A DNA stretch of 50,493 nt from Microgenomates group bacterium GW2011_GWC1_46_15 (GTDB taxonomy: Bacteria; Patescibacteriota; Microgenomatia; UBA1400; UBA12028): assembly GCA_001002285.1 (NCBI GenBank), contig LCLX01000005.1, forward strand, positions 1-50,493, written 5' to 3'. The notes under the pieces were generated by a model. The model was not told where the DNA came from, made no database searches, and saw nothing but the letters and a program-made list of their open reading frames with translations. Of the stretch, positions 15,614-44,031 are shown piece after piece (position 1 is the first letter of the stretch; each line of letters begins with the position of its first letter). The position numbers were made by a program, and so were the translations under genes.

Positions 15614-17632
15614 GTGAAGGATGTGCCGCCCATGGATGATACTTCAAAAGAGCCTCTTCTTGCCGAAGGCAGTGACGCGCCGGAAATTTCAAGTACAGTA
15701 ACCACACCTTTTGCTTCTGTGAACTCTACGGAGTCCCCCAGTGCTTCTCCCAAAAAACCAAAAGTTTGGGTCAAAATTGTGTTGAGTATTGTGGTTATTC
15801 TTCTTGTCCTTGGTATTTTCCTTGGAGTTATTGGTGGTGTGGTCTATCTTAAGGCACGTGAAATGATGGGAAGTGGGACGGCACTCCAGCAGTCATTGCA
15901 GGCTTCGTACACCGCGATAAAATCACAAAATCTTGTTGAGTCGAAGGCGAAGCTCGTTGAAGCGCAAGCACAGCTTCAGGAAGTTAAGAAAAAGTATGAC
16001 GGACTCGGATTTATGCGGTTTATTCCGTTTGCCGGAGCCTATTACAACGATGGCAAGCACGGCTTGAAAGCAGGCCAGTCTGCGCTCGAAGCCGCTGATG
16101 TTGCTTTGCAAGCCATTGAGCCGTACGCCGATGTACTTGGATTTAGCGGTGCGGGAACGTTTACTGGTGGTTCCGTTGAAAACCGCATTCAGCTTGCGCT
16201 GGCAACGCTCCCCAAGATTATGCCCGTTATGGATCAGCTTTCAGGGAAGTTGGAGAACGTACAAAGTGAGTTGGCGCAGATTGACGAACGCAGATACCCT
16301 GAGTCATTTCGTGGAATGGTGATTCGTGAAAAAATAACATCAGCGAAAGCATTTGCGGCTGGCGCAAAAGAAGTTGTGACGCAGGGCAAACCGGTACTGG
16401 AAGTTTTACCCGATATTGCAGGAGCAACGGGAAAGCGCAAGCGATACTTTATTTTATTCCAGAATGATAATGAGCGCCGGCCGACTGGTGGATTCATGAC
16501 GGCGTTTGCAACGCTTCTTGTTGAAAATGGGCATGTTACACCCGAACGATCGGATGACATTTATGAGTTGGATAAGAAGTTCCGCAACAAACCGGAAATT
16601 CCCGCGATTCTTAAAACGTATCTCAAAACAGAGACGCGGTGGAATCTTCGTGATATGAACCTTTCGCCGGACTTCAAAAACTCTATGGACGTGTTCTGGT
16701 CGTACTACTCAAAGCTTCCTGGAGAAAATGCAAAAGATGTTGATGGCATTATCACGGTAGACACTGCCGTGCTGGAAAATCTCGTCGCGGTGCTTGGGCC
16801 GGTAGAAGTTCCGGGCTATGGCACGTTCTCCGCGGAGAATGATAAGCGGTGTGATTGTCCCCAAATTATCTACGCGCTTTCTGAGATTGTTGACCGGCCA
16901 ACACCATTCCTCCGTGCAAATCGAAAAGGTATTATCGGTCCGATGATGCAGGCGGTCCTGCAAAAGGCGTATACCGCGCCAAAACAACTTTGGCCCGCGC
17001 TCTTTGGCAGCGCGTGGAAAAACATCGAGGAAAAGCACGTCCAGTTTTACTTCTTTGATGAGAAAACGCAAGCTGCCGCGGAGAGTATTAACGCTGCGGG
17101 CCGTGTAAAACCGACGCCAGCGAACAGCGATTACTTGTTTATCGTTGACGCAAACCTTGGCGGCGCAAAGTCCAATCTGTTTGTGAAAACATCAATCGAA
17201 CAAGATGTTGAAGTTCCGCAAAACGGCGTGCTGAAGAAAACGATTACCATGACATACAAAAATCCGTTCCCGCCGTCCAACTGCAATCTTGAGGCTGGCC
17301 AACTCTGTTTGAACGGTAAACTTACCGACTGGCTGCGTATTTATCTGCCGGAAGGCGCGAAAGTAACAGACTCGCTTGGATTTGATACCGGAACGACCAA
17401 AACAAGCGAAGACCTTGGGCATGCAGTATTTGAAGGGGTGTTTACGCTCCAGCCACTCAACCAAGTAAAAGTGAAAATTACATACACCGTCCCATACACC
17501 GACACAAAAACGTACCGCCTGTTTATGCAAAAGCAAGGGGGAGCGGAAGACATCACCCATCTTATGACCGTGAACGGCGGACAACAGCAAGTCGTGTTGG
17601 ATAAAGATAAAGCAGTGGCGATTCCGTTCTAA
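15614..17632 (+). CDS. DUF4012-family membrane-anchored protein
   Basis: One N-terminal TM, coiled coil, 'LFQNDNERRPTGGF', 'RDMNLSPDF', 'DGIITVD', 'DANLGGAKSN', 'QKQGG'. Alternative start ATG 15632. Confidence 0.8.
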   Translation: MKDVPPMDDTSKEPLLAEGSDAPEISSTVTTPFASVNSTESPSASPKKPKVWVKIVLSIVVILLVLGIFLGVIGGVVYLKAREMMGSGTALQQSLQASYTAIKSQNLVESKAKLVEAQAQLQEVKKKYDGLGFMRFIPFAGAYYNDGKHGLKAGQSALEAADVALQAIEPYADVLGFSGAGTFTGGSVENRIQLALATLPKIMPVMDQLSGKLENVQSELAQIDERRYPESFRGMVIREKITSAKAFAAGAKEVVTQGKPVLEVLPDIAGATGKRKRYFILFQNDNERRPTGGFMTAFATLLVENGHVTPERSDDIYELDKKFRNKPEIPAILKTYLKTETRWNLRDMNLSPDFKNSMDVFWSYYSKLPGENAKDVDGIITVDTAVLENLVAVLGPVEVPGYGTFSAENDKRCDCPQIIYALSEIVDRPTPFLRANRKGIIGPMMQAVLQKAYTAPKQLWPALFGSAWKNIEEKHVQFYFFDEKTQAAAESINAAGRVKPTPANSDYLFIVDANLGGAKSNLFVKTSIEQDVEVPQNGVLKKTITMTYKNPFPPSNCNLEAGQLCLNGKLTDWLRIYLPEGAKVTDSLGFDTGTTKTSEDLGHAVFEGVFTLQPLNQVKVKITYTVPYTDTKTYRLFMQKQGGAEDITHLMTVNGGQQQVVLDKDKAVAIPF

Positions 17633-17650
17633 GCGGTGCGCGAAGAACAT

Positions 17651-18196
17651 ATGCGGACAGTTTCGACCGAAGGCATTGTGTTAAAGCGGATGAACGTGGG
17701 CGAAGCCGATCGGTTTGTTACAATCTTTACCCGCGATCTTGGAAAAATTTCCGCGTTGGCAAAAGGCGTGCGCAAGATTACCTCTTCCCGCAGTGCGGCG
17801 CTGGAGCCCGGAACGCACACAAAACTTCTTTTGAGCCGGTCGCACGAAACATTTATCGTGTCGCAGGCGCAAGTCATTGACGCGTTCTCGCGCGCGAAAG
17901 AAACGCTGGCGGGCGCAAAACAAGTGATGCAAGTGTTGGAGATTGTTGACGCCGTGATGGTTGAAGAGGAACAACAGGATGTGTTTGATGACGTGCTTCA
18001 CATTCTGAGAGAAGTAGATAAAACACACAGCGTGCGAAGCGTTGTAACAAAAACGCTCACAACAATGCTACAACGGCTTGGTTTTCAAGACATGCGTGAT
18101 ACCCCGTACGCGACTATCACGGAGTATGTTGAGTTCATCGCGGAAAAAAAGATGAAGAGTTATCCGTACTTGACAGTTAAAACATCGCAGACGTAA
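17651..18196 (+). CDS. recO: DNA repair protein RecO (short form)
   Basis: 'TEGIVLKR..GEADR.VTIFTRDLGKI.A.AKGVRKITS.R'; recO-glyQS synteny. Confidence 0.9.
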   Translation: MRTVSTEGIVLKRMNVGEADRFVTIFTRDLGKISALAKGVRKITSSRSAALEPGTHTKLLLSRSHETFIVSQAQVIDAFSRAKETLAGAKQVMQVLEIVDAVMVEEEQQDVFDDVLHILREVDKTHSVRSVVTKTLTTMLQRLGFQDMRDTPYATITEYVEFIAEKKMKSYPYLTVKTSQT

Positions 18197-18199
18197 GAT
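18170..18199 (+). promoter_or_regulatory. Sigma70-type promoter for the glyQS leader
   Basis: TTGACA (18170-75), 18-nt spacer, TAAGAT (18194-99). Confidence 0.7.
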
Positions 18200-18205
18200 G
18201 GAGAA

Positions 18206-18335
18206 AAGCGTGACGATCGGGTTGGCAGCCGGGAGCGCAAAAAGTGAGCGCATTTCTTCAAGATGAAGAGATGAAGTAGGGTGGAACCGCCCAAAGATGG
18301 GTCCCTGCAGTACATATGTGCTGGAGGGATTTTTT
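18206..18335 (+). promoter_or_regulatory. Glycine T-box riboswitch, minimal architecture, transcription-attenuator type
   Basis: T-box AGGG-TGGAACC-GCCC/GGGT-CCCT (18278-18306). Specifier GGC (18224-26) in the 8-nt loop of TCGG/CCGG. Stem III ATTTCTTCA/TGAAGAGAT. Terminator ends in T6. Lies directly upstream of GlyRS. Confidence 0.85.
18302..18335 (+). terminator. Intrinsic terminator of the glyQS T-box
   Basis: TCCCT-GCAGTACA-TA-TGTGCTGG-AGGGA followed by TTTTTT; overlaps the 3' strand of the antiterminator. Confidence 0.85.
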
Positions 18336-18349
18336 GTAGGGAGGGATCT

Positions 18350-19726
18350 ATGAGCGTTACACTCGATGACATTACCGCGCTGGCAAAACGCCGCGGATTT
18401 GTATTCCAAAGCTCGGAGCTCTATGGCGGGCTTGCTAACTTGTATGACTACGGGCCGATGGGAACAGCGCTTCTGCGCAATATCCGTAATCTCTGGTGGA
18501 AAACATTTGTTGATGACCGTGACGACATGGTTGGACTTGATGCCAGCACGATCTCGCATGCAAAAATTTGGGAGGCTTCGGGACACGTTGCGGGATTTGC
18601 CGACGCGATGATTGACTGCAAGTCATGCCACGTCCGTATGCGCGCGGACCATTTGATCGAAGATTACTTCACGAAAAAAGGAAAAGAAGAAAAAGTTGAG
18701 GGAAAGTCGCTGGAAGAGTTGGACGTGCTCATCGCGAAAGAAAAAATCCCGTGCCCAACGTGTGGAAAACACACATGGACAACGGTGCGGAAGTTTAATC
18801 TCTTGTTCCCCGTTCACCTTGGAATTTTGGAAGAGTCGCAGTCGCTTGCGTACCTCCGTGGAGAAACTGCACAGGGAATGTTTGTAAACTTCAAGAATGT
18901 GTTGGACTCTACCCGCGTTCGCCTGCCGTTTGGAGTTGCCCAGCTTGGAAAAAGTTTCCGTAACGAGATTACGAAAGGAAACTTTGTGTTCCGCACACTT
19001 GAGTTTGAGCAGGGGGAGATTGAGTACTTCTTTGATCCCGAACAAACCAAATGGGAAACGCTGTACGAAGAATGGAAAAAAACAATGTGGGAGTTCGTGA
19101 CGACCACGCTTGGAGTGAATAAGAGCAACTTGCGATGGCGCGCGCACACCGATGAAGAGCGCAGTTTTTATAGTAAGCGCACCGAAGACTTAGAGTACAA
19201 CTATCCGTTTGGATACAAAGAGTTGTGGGGACTAGCGTATCGTACCGATTACGATCTCAGCCAGCACATCAAGTTTTCCGGAAAAGATTTGTCGTATACC
19301 GATCCACAGTCTAACAAAAAGTTTGTGCCGCACGTGATTGAACCGGCGGTTGGAATCAATAGATTGTTTTTAATGGTGTTAGCTGATGCGTACTGGAAAG
19401 ATGAACAACGTGGGCGAATAGTGCTGAAGCTGAATAAAACGTTGGCTCCGTATCGTGCCGCAGTGTTTCCGCTCGTATCAAACAAGCCGGAGATTGTTGC
19501 AAAGGCGCGCAGTGTCTATACTGCGCTGAAATCAGCCTATCCTACGGTCTGGGATGATCGTGGAAACATTGGAAAGCGATACCTCGCGCAGGATGAAATC
19601 GGAACGCCATTTTGCGTTACAATAGATTATCAAACGCTGGAAGATAACACCGTGACCGTGCGCAACAGAGATACGGCAGAACAACAACGGGTGAAGATTG
19701 ATGAGTTGAAAGGAGCAGTAGCATGA
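18350..19726 (+). CDS. glyQS: Glycine--tRNA ligase, alpha2 (homodimeric) type
   Basis: 'KRRGFVFQSSELYGG..YDYGP.G', 'YLRGETAQG', 'FRNEIT', 'IEPAVG', 'IGKRYLAQDEIGTP'. ATG 18350 follows SD GGAGG; the ORF-track start at 18281 lies inside the T-box. Confidence 0.96.
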   Translation: MSVTLDDITALAKRRGFVFQSSELYGGLANLYDYGPMGTALLRNIRNLWWKTFVDDRDDMVGLDASTISHAKIWEASGHVAGFADAMIDCKSCHVRMRADHLIEDYFTKKGKEEKVEGKSLEELDVLIAKEKIPCPTCGKHTWTTVRKFNLLFPVHLGILEESQSLAYLRGETAQGMFVNFKNVLDSTRVRLPFGVAQLGKSFRNEITKGNFVFRTLEFEQGEIEYFFDPEQTKWETLYEEWKKTMWEFVTTTLGVNKSNLRWRAHTDEERSFYSKRTEDLEYNYPFGYKELWGLAYRTDYDLSQHIKFSGKDLSYTDPQSNKKFVPHVIEPAVGINRLFLMVLADAYWKDEQRGRIVLKLNKTLAPYRAAVFPLVSNKPEIVAKARSVYTALKSAYPTVWDDRGNIGKRYLAQDEIGTPFCVTIDYQTLEDNTVTVRNRDTAEQQRVKIDELKGAVA

Positions 19727-41002: not shown

Positions 41003-41180
41003 TGTTATACTATTCCCAAATAAATAAAAGCATACTCCCCGCCCATCATCGGGGTGCTGATCGAAGAAATCCTTCGGGAAAGTAGAACGATCCGGGTAAG
41101 CCCGAGACAGCAGGATTGAGAAGCAAGTAAGGTGGAACCACGCGGAAGCGTCCTTGAAGGACAGTGAGCGTGGTTTTTTT
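41003..41180 (+). promoter_or_regulatory. Isoleucine T-box riboswitch with ultrashort Stem I and an intrinsic terminator, plus its promoter
   Basis: TGtTATACT (41003-11). Stem I AGCA-tact-CCCCG[CCCATCAT]CGGGG-TGCT with ATC at 41045-47. Stem II GATCG..GAA..cTTCGg..AGTA..CGATC. Stem IIA CGGG/CCCG. Antiterminator AAGG-TGGAACC-ACGC-GGAA-GCGT-CCTT. Terminator CCACGC/GCGTGG plus T7. Confidence 0.88.
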
Positions 41181-41211
41181 ATGCCAACATATGACACAAT
41201 AGGAGTGCGCA

Positions 41212-44031
41212 ATGAAACATATAGATAGTTTTCAAACTCAGCCAAATCTTCCTCAACTCGAAGAGGAAGTGCTCAAGCATTGGGACGAAACAGACGCATT
41301 TGCCAAATCCGTTAGCCAGCGTCCGGCCACCAAGCCCTACATTTTCTACGATGGCCCTCCATTTGCGACGGGTTTGCCGCACTATGGCCATCTCTTGGCT
41401 TCAACCATTAAGGACGTGATTCCGCGGTACTGGACGATGAAAGGCTACCGCGTGGAGCGTGTGTGGGGTTGGGACTGCCATGGAGTTCCGATCGAAAACA
41501 TGATCGAAAAAGAACTTGATCTCAAAGGTGGGAAAAAAGGCATTGAAGAAATGGGAATTGGCAAGTTTAACGCTGCGTGCCGCGCGGCAATTTTGCGATT
41601 CGACAAAGATTGGGAAATCATCATTAAACGCCTTGGCCGGTGGGTGGACTTCAAACACTCCTACAAGACAATGGATAACACATACATGGAATCGGTGTGG
41701 TGGGCATTTTCGCAGCTCCACACTGGTGGATTGGTGTACGAAGGGCACAAAGTCATTTTGTACTGCCCGCGATGCGCCACACCGTTGTCGAACTTTGAGA
41801 TTGTAATGGATAACTCGTACAAAGACGTCGAGGATAACTCGGTTTATGTAAAGTTCAAGGCGGTTGGCATCGAAAACGAGTACTTTATCGCGTGGACAAC
41901 TACACCATGGACACTCATTGGCAATGTCGCATTAGCAGTAGATGCTAAAGCGGAGTATGCGCAGGTTGAACTCAATGGGGAGCTGCTTTGGGTGGCAAAA
42001 AAGCTTGTCAAAACAGTATTTAAGGGTGATAAACCGGTCGTTAAGCAAACAATCAAAGGCAAAGACCTTGTTGGTCGGCAGTATGAGCCACTTTATACGT
42101 TTATGCCTTTGGATGGAAAAAAGGCGCACTACATCGCATCTGCTGATTTTGTGAGTTTGGAAGATGGAACGGGTATTGTTCATACCGCCGCGATTTATGG
42201 TGAAGATGACTATGCGCTAGCGCAAAAACTTAATCTTCCGTGTGTCCCAACGATGGATGACCAAGGGCGATTCTTGGAGTTTGTAACTCCGCTCGCCGGT
42301 GTGTTTTACAAAAAAGCAGAAGACTGGATTATTGAGGACTTAACCAAACGCGCTCTCATGTATGCCGCACAAAAAACAACGCACTCATATCCATTCTGCT
42401 ACCGCTGTTCCACACCGCTGTACTACAATGCTGTGCCGGCATGGTTTATCAACGTACAAAAAATCAAGCCGGAATTAGTAAAACAGAATGAAAAGATTAA
42501 CTGGTATCCGGAATTTTTGAAACACGGACGGTTTGGTAAGGGGCTAGAAACGGCACCGGATTGGAACATTTCACGCTCCCGCTATTGGGGAACGCCGATG
42601 CCGGTATGGGTGGGTGAAAAGACTGGCAAGCAACGCATTTTGAGTTCGTTTGCAGAGTTAGAGAAGTGGGCGGTAAAGCCGGATTCTGTTCGAACATTAA
42701 CGGATTACCACCGCGAGTTTCTCGATGATATTGAAGTTTGGGTTGACGACGCAAAAACAGAAAAAGGCCGCCGCATTCCCGATGTGTTTGACTGCTGGGT
42801 TGAGTCTGGTTCAATGCCGTACGCGTCTATCCACTATCCGTTTGAGCATAAGGACAAGTTTGAGGCGAGTTATCCCGCGCAGTTTATTTCTGAGTACATC
42901 GCGCAAACCCGCGCGTGGTTTTACACACTGCACGTGATGTCAGTTGGACTGTTTGGAAAGCCGGCGTTTGAAAATGCTGTTACGACAGGGACAATTTTGG
43001 CAGCAGATGGGTCCAAAATGAGCAAGTCCAAGAAAAACTATCCCGATCCGATGCTTCTCATCGATAAACATGGTGTAGATTCTTTGCGCCTGTACTTGAT
43101 GAGTTCAACCGTGATGAAAGCAGATAACGTAAACTTTAGCGAAGACGGAGTGAACGAGATTCGCAAAAAAGTATTTGGCATTTGGTGGAATGTATTTTCA
43201 TTCTACAAACTTTATGCAGATCAAACAAAACCATTAGAGTTGCCCAAAAAGATTACACATGTCATGGATGTGTGGATTGTGTCTCGGATAACTCGCCTTA
43301 TTCAAGAGGTAACGGCATACATGGATGCGTATGATGTGGTCAACACTTCCCGCGTGCTCATGACGTTTGTTGATGAACTGTCCACGTGGTATCTGCGTGA
43401 GAGCCGTGATCGCCTGCGGGATAAAGCAACGAATGGTGAAGCAAGCCAAGTGTTTGGATGGGTACTGCTTACGCTCGCAAAATTGTTTGCCCCGATCACA
43501 CCGTTTTTCCCGGAGTTGTTATATCAGCATCTTGGACAGATAAAAGGGGAGTCTATTCACTTGGAAGATTGGCCTGTTGCAGAACCTACGTACATACACG
43601 ATCAGCTTGAGCAGATGATGAAACTTGTTCGTGAAGTTGTAGAAAAAGTGCACGCAGCCCGTAAGGAACAACATATAAAGGTTCGTCAGCCTCTTGCACG
43701 TGTAATAGTGACGGCCTCTGCACAACCGATGGACAATGTACTTGATATTCTTAAACAAGAAATCAATGTAGAGGAAGTTGTGTGGACTGAAAAAGCAGAA
43801 AGTGAACTTACTGTTACCCTCGACACAACACTCACTGACAATCTCAAAGCCAAAGGAGAGATGCGTGAAGTCATGCGTGTTATTCAAGATCTCCGCAAAG
43901 AATCGAACGTTGGATTTGACGCGTACGTAAATGTTCAGCTTCCAAGTTGGCCGAAACAGTTTGAAGATGAGATCAAAAAGAAGACGCTAGTGAAAAACCT
44001 CACAGCTGGTGATGTTCCGAAGATTGTATGA
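41212..44031 (+). CDS. ileS: Isoleucine--tRNA ligase, type 2 (eukaryote-like)
   Basis: 'FYDGPPFATGLPHYGH', 'GWDCHG', 'WTTTPWTL', 'DWNISRSRYWGTP', 'KMSKSKKNYPDP'; type-2 C-terminus 'RE..R.IQDLRK' without the type-1 Zn finger. Confidence 0.96.
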   Translation: MKHIDSFQTQPNLPQLEEEVLKHWDETDAFAKSVSQRPATKPYIFYDGPPFATGLPHYGHLLASTIKDVIPRYWTMKGYRVERVWGWDCHGVPIENMIEKELDLKGGKKGIEEMGIGKFNAACRAAILRFDKDWEIIIKRLGRWVDFKHSYKTMDNTYMESVWWAFSQLHTGGLVYEGHKVILYCPRCATPLSNFEIVMDNSYKDVEDNSVYVKFKAVGIENEYFIAWTTTPWTLIGNVALAVDAKAEYAQVELNGELLWVAKKLVKTVFKGDKPVVKQTIKGKDLVGRQYEPLYTFMPLDGKKAHYIASADFVSLEDGTGIVHTAAIYGEDDYALAQKLNLPCVPTMDDQGRFLEFVTPLAGVFYKKAEDWIIEDLTKRALMYAAQKTTHSYPFCYRCSTPLYYNAVPAWFINVQKIKPELVKQNEKINWYPEFLKHGRFGKGLETAPDWNISRSRYWGTPMPVWVGEKTGKQRILSSFAELEKWAVKPDSVRTLTDYHREFLDDIEVWVDDAKTEKGRRIPDVFDCWVESGSMPYASIHYPFEHKDKFEASYPAQFISEYIAQTRAWFYTLHVMSVGLFGKPAFENAVTTGTILAADGSKMSKSKKNYPDPMLLIDKHGVDSLRLYLMSSTVMKADNVNFSEDGVNEIRKKVFGIWWNVFSFYKLYADQTKPLELPKKITHVMDVWIVSRITRLIQEVTAYMDAYDVVNTSRVLMTFVDELSTWYLRESRDRLRDKATNGEASQVFGWVLLTLAKLFAPITPFFPELLYQHLGQIKGESIHLEDWPVAEPTYIHDQLEQMMKLVREVVEKVHAARKEQHIKVRQPLARVIVTASAQPMDNVLDILKQEINVEEVVWTEKAESELTVTLDTTLTDNLKAKGEMREVMRVIQDLRKESNVGFDAYVNVQLPSWPKQFEDEIKKKTLVKNLTAGDVPKIV

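Follow-up and report, generated by a model that had tools for sequence, protein, structure and literature searches.

A minimal glycine T-box leader upstream of glyS in a Microgenomates bacterium

We report a leader in front of the glycyl-tRNA synthetase gene glyS of Microgenomates group bacterium GW2011_GWC1_46_15, which is quite probably a glycine-specific T-box transcription attenuator of this gene in a reduced form. It lies within the window, the whole stretch of 50,493 nucleotides (nt) analysed here, which is one contig (C5; LCLX01000005.1) of a genome of 914 kb in 8 contigs. The minimal glyS leader, with an ultrashort Stem I, is a real, conserved variant of the known T-box riboswitch class. 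Its anatomy, its conservation and covariation among relatives, and the matches of its codon and of the discriminator base to gene and tRNA are direct observations, from which we infer tRNA binding, sensing of tRNA charging, readthrough into glyS and the absence of a third tRNA contact. In the parts of the literature searched, a glycine T-box with a short Stem I and without Stem II appears to be undescribed, and a prior database listing is possible. A preliminary description of this DNA, made from the letters alone, had proposed a minimal class that it did not recognise as described, and in these sources the combination does appear undescribed.

Anatomy of the leader and its match to gene and tRNA

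The leader is contained in the 153-nt spacer between recO and glyS (18197–18349; all positions are those of the window), and glyS is the gene it regulates. It is composed of the following elements on the forward strand:

18170–18199 (+): sigma-70-like promoter, TTGACA at 18170–18175, an 18-nt spacer and TAAGAT at 18194–18199; 10 of 12 matches
18208–18238 (+): ultrashort Stem I, 31 nt, from the minimum free energy (MFE) fold and RNAalifold, with changes on both sides of pairs
18208–18211 with 18235–18238 (+): C-stem of Stem I, 4 pairs
18212–18214 and 18215–18216 with 18233–18234 (+): kink-turn (K-turn) of Stem I, a 3-nt bulge followed by tandem G.A/A.G
18217–18220 with 18229–18232 (+): upper stem of Stem I, 4 pairs
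18221–18228 (+): apical loop of Stem I, 8 nt, containing U-GGC-A (18223–18227)
18224–18226 (+): GGC, the glycine specifier codon, between U18223 and A18227
18239–18250 (+): A-rich linker, 12 nt, unpaired in the MFE fold
18251–18273 (+): Stem III, 10 pairs and a 3-nt loop with purines on its flanks, from the MFE fold and the RF00230 alignment
18278–18306 (+): antiterminator, from the RF00230 alignment, −9.8 kcal/mol
18278–18281 with 18303–18306 (+): antiterminator helix A1
18282–18288 (+): T-box bulge UGGAACC, 7 nt, with UGGA at 18282–18285
18289–18293 with 18298–18302 (+): antiterminator helix A2, with a G.U pair first
18299–18329 (+): intrinsic terminator hairpin, from the MFE fold, followed by U6 at 18330–18335

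The promoter, the Stem I of about 31 nt with GGC at its apex, the A-rich linker, Stem III, the UGGA-bearing antiterminator and the terminator are all located where the preliminary description had put them. It had drawn Stem I with two internal loops, which are really a standard K-turn that had been missed. Read from the sequence, transcription would start near 18206.

The strands at 18299–18306 are common to two folds. The 3′ arms of helices A2 and A1 also serve in the 5′ arm of the terminator, and therefore the terminator and antiterminator folds exclude each other. The terminator-containing fold reaches −28.6 kcal/mol compared to the −9.8 kcal/mol of the antiterminator; because this competing fold is far more stable, the default state would be off, like in other T-boxes. 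The spacer as a whole folds at −52.8 kcal/mol, whereas the mean of 200 shuffles was −39.1 kcal/mol (z = −3.77) and none of the 200 was as good.

The tRNA-Gly genes of the genome have the anticodons GCC, UCC and CCC, and all three carry U73. The UGGA bulge is complementary to the U73-C-C-A end of tRNA-Gly, hence its earlier proposed fit to U73 holds for tRNA-Gly(GCC). In the window genome the specifier tracks the gene, with GGC in front of glyS, AGC in front of serS and AUC in front of ileS. Specifier and UGGA are 55 nt apart. This figure agrees with the preliminary description, but its notion of an unusually short distance does not stand, since the distance is 61 nt in a canonical long-Stem-I glyS leader from the same bacterial order. 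The linker is similar in the two leader types, with 12 nt here versus 13–16 nt in canonical glycine leaders.

At gathering thresholds, Rfam gave no match across the window. In E-value mode, RF00230 matched the leader with 30.3 bits (E 4.8e-5), the gathering cut-off being 93 bits. The high posterior probabilities fell on Stem III and the antiterminator; the alignment deleted 87 positions of Stem I and forced the Stem II/IIA positions of the model onto low-probability sequence. An Infernal run with RF00230 had been proposed beforehand as a check, and its confident part was limited to Stem III and the antiterminator; the missing long Stem I is supported by the deleted positions. Hence, a T-box bulge, mutually exclusive folds, a gene-matched specifier and a basal K-turn are all found in the glyS leader, while a long Stem I with an elbow platform and a score at the Rfam gathering level are not.

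Conservation, covariation and distribution of the leader

For the comparison with relatives, 40 regions upstream of glyS were taken. The choice was non-random, with the first 23 picked for a nearby Rfam match, and a T-box core was present in 28 of the 40. Alignment A2, made with MAFFT from 25 leaders and unfitted to any model, was the source of the covariance model R1. GGUGGAACC was invariant in all 25 leaders of A2, and so was UGGC. From A2, RNAalifold recovered both Stem I helices together with helices A1 and A2 of the antiterminator, and 9 of the 15 pairs showed compensatory changes. A second alignment, A3, comprises 48 glyS leaders aligned to R1. Here, 91.2% of the cells pair compared to 72.9% in shuffles, and all 8 Stem I pairs vary on both sides across the 48 leaders. 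The covariation score of A3 was 0.457, against 0.158 in shuffled alignments (reached by 0 of 500) and at most 0.068 with the partners slid by 1–3 columns. The covariation of Stem I, a check suggested beforehand, was borne out in both alignments of the relatives' glyS leaders. It is the 47 related glyS leaders that lift the window leader above a chance arrangement of short motifs.

The apical loop was parsed in 43 of the 48 rows of A3, omitting the canonical leaders L092 and L134, the leaders L179 and L124 with an inserted hairpin, and the misaligned L190. Its length was 6–9 nt throughout the 43 parsed leaders. Every loop contained a glycine codon (GGC in 41, GGA in 2), so that the conservation asked of these orthologous leaders was found at the level of the codon. 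The base 5′ of the specifier was U in 43 of 43 loops, and the base 3′ of it was a purine in 42 (A 36, G 6, C 1).

These constant features bear on the possibility that the leader is a decayed remnant, which does not sense tRNA and is merely a constitutive or leaky terminator. A remnant would match a score far under the Rfam cut-off, the loss of two domains and the lack of any leader in some close relatives. However, the glycine codon and the U in front of it were both retained in each of the 43 loops, GGUGGAACC was unchanged in 25 of 25 leaders, all Stem I pairs showed compensatory changes, and a terminator overlapping the antiterminator occurs across different families of the Candidate Phyla Radiation (CPR). 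We consider decay highly improbable.

The claimed lack of Stem II was supported as well: the IIA/B pseudoknot motif was found in 0 of the 48 glyS leaders, while the ileS leader of the window has it, and so do 14 of the 20 other short T-boxes taken from relatives (L219–L238). In most glyS leaders a single hairpin, Stem III, separates Stem I from the T-box, following 7–22 unpaired A-rich bases. The preliminary description had allowed for an alternative or vestigial Stem II formed by GCGC...GCGC at 18235–18251; this hairpin was rejected, since it reaches only −5.8 kcal/mol and is by eye unmatched in the two nearest relatives (G007, G084).

A transcript starting further upstream, within recO, might supply a conventional long Stem I from coding sequence. 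The first positions of the RF00230 model were in fact placed at 18143, inside recO, and the promoter match by itself is at chance level. Nevertheless, this part of the Rfam alignment has a posterior of only 0.2–0.5 and still leaves 87 Stem I positions deleted. The orthologous leaders share the short hairpin and not the sequence 5′ of it, and 23 of the 48 leaders have a promoter-like site directly 5′ of the hairpin, no more than 80 nt before Stem I. The end of recO is only 11 nt before the C-stem, and no conventional Stem I was found further upstream of the window leader. A start within recO thus appears scarcely credible.

The glycyl-tRNA synthetase (GlyRS) was present in 147 of 151 genomes of the window's order. 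The R1 census of these 151 genomes yielded matches at E ≤ 0.01 in 54, and in 38 genomes, among them the window genome, cross-matching with the GlyRS places put the match immediately upstream of glyS. Among these 38 glyS-adjacent matches, 36 have a short Stem I and two (G018 and G034, with Rfam scores of 97.2 and 66.2 bits) are canonical leaders with a long Stem I, so both types exist within the same order. Within the window's family, the leader was found in 11 of 13 other genomes. In a phylum-wide sample at E ≤ 1e-4, 13 of 151 genomes matched R1; seven of them are outside the order, upstream of a GlyRS gene, and GGA replaces GGC in one of these seven glyS leaders. Among 80 GlyRS loci of one public collection, the leader was present at only two CPR-like loci (L009, L020).

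Beyond the CPR, the 151 genomes from the phylum of G299 (record title: Flexilinea) gave two weak R1 matches upstream of glyS, L207 and L208 (38.6 and 36.6 bits), in which Stem I seems short. Five R1 matches at E ≤ 1e-7 were obtained in the 151 genomes from the phylum of G300 (record title: Clostridia). Their 5′ flanks suggest a canonical long Stem I in every case, and tblastn detected no GlyRS at these five loci.

In 44 of the 48 related leaders, the T-box is followed by at least five consecutive T. The glyS leader of G069 (L166) has no such run, and its would-be antiterminator strand appears paired to the Shine-Dalgarno sequence, pointing to translational control in this case; transcriptional and translational versions of the minimal glyS leader both seem to exist. 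The glyS leader L175 (G024) is likewise without a T-run after the T-box. Two short leaders have a GGA specifier, which would select tRNA-Gly(UCC): L188 (G175), upstream of glyS, and L182 (G021), which sits at a contig end in a genome in which GlyRS was not found.

Several points weigh against reading the leader as a working T-box of this minimal kind. The requirement for an elbow platform or a Stem II stated in reviews conflicts with function in the absence of both. The nearest GlyRS loci of the public collection, L005–L008, are without the leader, hence the element is dispensable in some lineages. Taken alone, the promoter match is approximately at chance level (a mean of 0.8 per kb in shuffles versus one per kb), and 30.3 bits falls far short of the Rfam cut-off of 93. 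The shuffle control of A3 overstates significance, as this alignment was fitted to a model and its sequences are related; the result for the unfitted A2 agrees in direction. The K-turn is not universal, with GA/GA in the aligned columns of only 26 of 43 leaders. Finally, some of the glyS leaders are maybe not minimal, since they carry either an additional hairpin separating Stem I from Stem III or a closing helix on the outside; by eye, the clear cases are the leaders of G013, G133, G145, G070 and G037, and L009.

Other T-boxes and flanking genes

Two further T-boxes were located in the window genome, in front of ileS and serS:

41024–41190 of the window (+): ileS T-box, upstream of an isoleucyl-tRNA synthetase-like open reading frame (ORF) at 41212–44031
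G000:C4:27597–27745 (−): serS T-box, locus L001, 45.1 bits with Rfam, below the cut-off

The ileS leader has an ultrashort Stem I (41037–41054) with AUC followed by A in the apical loop, and then Stem II, the IIA/B pseudoknot motif and an intrinsic terminator, so it appears to be transcriptional in spite of its short Stem I. Its UGGA bulge misfits A73 of the tRNA-Ile(GAU) of the genome. In the serS leader, an ultrashort Stem I with AGC followed by A in a 7-nt loop precedes a short Stem II, the IIA/B element (both RF00230-aligned at high probability) and a terminator, and its UGGC bulge fits G73 of tRNA-Ser. Hence, an apical specifier is the rule in this genome, and among its three T-boxes only the glycine leader is without Stem II. 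As an observation on the tRNAs of this genome, ARAGORN called a tRNA-Ser with the anticodon ACT at G000:C1:56421–56504, directly after tRNA-Ser(TGA); a serine tRNA with an unmodified A34 would be unusual.

When RF00230 was run on the 151 genomes of the order, 93 had a match at E ≤ 0.001 and 12 a match above the cut-off, showing that standard annotation misses most T-boxes of the CPR. Nearly all of the T-boxes L219–L238 of the order are missed by the Rfam cut-off; they mostly seem to have an ultrashort Stem I and an apical specifier, and they have a T-run at the end. By eye, their specifiers include CCC at ProRS-like, UGG at TrpRS-like and UGC at CysRS-like genes.

The minimal plan may extend beyond glycine. 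The tryptophan leader L215 (G034:C10), an R1 match, follows the same plan, with UGG then A in the apical loop, a UGGC bulge and a single hairpin before the T-box. The R1 matches L214, L216 and L218 are threonine leaders in which ACC, followed by A, occupies the loop of a short Stem I, and an unassigned hairpin comes after this stem. From the first residues read by eye, the downstream ORFs are TrpRS-like for L215 and ThrRS-like for L214 and L216; the ORF of L218 is unrecognisable and this leader was assigned to threonine by its closeness to L214. The usual pseudoknot motif was not seen by eye in L214, L215, L216 or L218.

The genes and the ribosome binding site around the glyS leader are:

17636–18196 (+): recO, ORF with Pfam RecO_N (E 6.9e-22), the gene 5′ of the leader
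18340–18344 (+): Shine-Dalgarno sequence GGAGG of glyS, read from the sequence, not within the terminator hairpin
18350–19726 (+): glyS, single-chain (alpha2-type) glycyl-tRNA synthetase of 458 aa with Pfam tRNA-synt_2b and HGTP_anticodon

The final 27 bases of recO include the −35 box of the promoter, and the recO stop codon overlaps the −10 box. The GlyRS proteins of relatives share 50–79% identity with GlyS of the window, and the public records with the nearest GlyRS carry group labels of the CPR/Patescibacteria. Upstream of recO, an ORF of 672 aa with a DUF4012 domain (E 4.4e-23) was noted at 15614–17632 (+).

Predicted mechanism and comparison with known systems

In the proposed mechanism, RNA polymerase would initiate near 18206 and the nascent RNA would form the 31-nt Stem I, the basal K-turn of which bends the chain. 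The short helix would display the U-GGC-A apical loop like an anticodon loop, with U 5′ and a purine 3′ of the triplet, and the anticodon GCC of tRNA-Gly would pair with GGC through three G-C pairs. This likeness to an anticodon loop suggests a complex of the anticodon–anticodon type. Complexes of tRNAs with complementary anticodons are far more stable than free trinucleotide duplexes. The K-turn and the 12-nt linker would bring Stem III and the antiterminator within range of the acceptor end. An uncharged tRNA would pair its U73-C-C-A end with UGGA and stabilise the weak antiterminator, and the polymerase would enter glyS. Without tRNA, or with a charged one, the far more stable terminator would form. 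Unlike in known T-boxes, neither an elbow platform on a distal Stem I nor a clamp by Stem II and its pseudoknot on the codon–anticodon helix would take part.

Such an arrangement departs from what has been established for characterised T-boxes, as given in the parts of the cited sources covered here. According to current accounts, at least three contacts hold the tRNA on a T-box. Transcriptional T-boxes generally need the elbow-binding platform of a long Stem I, and truncated Stem I's without Stem II barely bind tRNA (PMC7583486). The short or 'ultrashort' Stem I forms act on translation and need Stem II, while the characterised glycyl T-boxes are all without Stem II and all with a long Stem I (PMC7583486, PMC11404447). 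The literature search yielded no paper tying T-boxes to the CPR among the matches listed. A glycine T-box with an apical specifier was not found described either, and the TBDB supplements may list leaders with a truncated Stem I.

Two published points make a glycine T-box with two contacts plausible. The strong GGC:GCC pairing has been argued as the reason why glycine leaders can spare Stem II (PMC7583486). Moreover, in Bacillus subtilis glyQS a mutation that disables the elbow contact weakened only the first binding step, about 50-fold, and left the 3′-end step intact (PMC6197855), so that a two-contact T-box is physically plausible.

Alternatively, the leader could be a working glycine T-box in which a third, unrecognised contact stands in for the elbow platform or Stem II. 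The poor tRNA binding of a truncated Stem I alone in the systems studied (PMC7583486) points in this direction. So does the purine-rich linker, with a run just 5′ of Stem III that is similar among the compared leaders; however, the two canonical glyS leaders of the order have such a purine run too, and PMC7583486 counts it as part of the discriminator domain, so it is not a new element. The 7-nt anticodon loop of tRNA-Gly(GCC) in the window genome is exactly reverse-complementary to the loop core seen most often, which would fit a longer loop–loop contact. In G030, by contrast, the anticodon loop of tRNA-Gly(GCC) is unchanged although the loop bases two positions away from the codon, on both sides, are different, and therefore pairing past five bases is not conserved. 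Extended loop–loop pairing beyond U-GGC-A was thus left unsupported by G030, the sole GCC isoacceptor among 5 genomes, which is a small sample. As for a K-turn-binding protein of the L7Ae family, 0 matches to PF01248 were obtained in the whole window genome, therefore the K-turns of its T-boxes would fold without a YbxF-like partner. Altogether, we regard a third contact as rather unlikely.

Returning to the glyS leader as a T-box attenuator that reads codon and 3′ end, we give roughly even credence to a natural class of two-contact T-box attenuators in the CPR, of about 100–130 nt, that would use an anticodon-loop-like specifier hairpin and the tRNA 3′ end only. If true, both auxiliary tRNA contacts, the elbow platform and Stem II, would be dispensable even in co-transcriptional decisions, and a conserved natural family with neither aid would set the lower limit for a tRNA-sensing riboswitch. 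The presence of long and short glyS leaders in one order makes the contribution of each contact directly comparable, and the compact scaffold of about 100 nt is offered for engineered tRNA sensors.

Among known systems, the leader looks like a glyQS-type leader minus the distal Stem I, with the specifier loop closed. The glyQS/glyS T-boxes of Firmicutes (B. subtilis, Geobacillus kaustophilus, Oceanobacillus iheyensis; RF00230) have the same target, a glycyl-tRNA synthetase gene. They share with it the GGC specifier with a 3′ purine, the K-turn at the base of Stem I, the lack of Stem II and of the IIA/B pseudoknot, the short single-stranded linker leading to a Stem III with flanking purines, the UGGA bulge for U73 and the competition of terminator and antiterminator. 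The specifier-to-bulge spacing is also similar, with 55 nt here versus 61 nt in the canonical long-Stem-I glyS leader of the order. In contrast to Firmicute glyQS, the window leader is without the whole distal Stem I, to which belong the hinge, the side of the specifier loop with the S-turn and the platform of interdigitated T-loops stacking on the tRNA elbow, and its specifier is located in a hairpin loop of 6–9 nt instead of an internal loop.

The actinobacterial ileS T-boxes with an 'ultrashort' Stem I (Mycobacterium, Nocardia; Sherwood et al. 2015) resemble the window leader in their truncated Stem I and absent elbow platform. Their specifier likewise occupies the terminal loop, and a K-turn is placed beneath it. 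They have an S-turn-bearing Stem II and the IIA/B pseudoknot, reported as essential for tRNA binding (PMC7583486), both of which are lacking in the glyS leader. Furthermore, they are translational and isoleucine-specific, whereas the window leader has an intrinsic terminator with U6 and a free GGAGG. In the window genome, serS and ileS have leaders similar to the actinobacterial ones, except that they end in terminators.

A further likeness is to pairs of tRNAs with complementary anticodons and to kissing loops, in which a triplet flanked by a 5′ U and a 3′ purine in a loop of the 7-nt type pairs with a complementary anticodon loop. Compared to tRNA–tRNA complexes this is an analogy only, as one of the two loops belongs here to an mRNA leader and its binding would be coupled to the contact with the tRNA's 3′ end.

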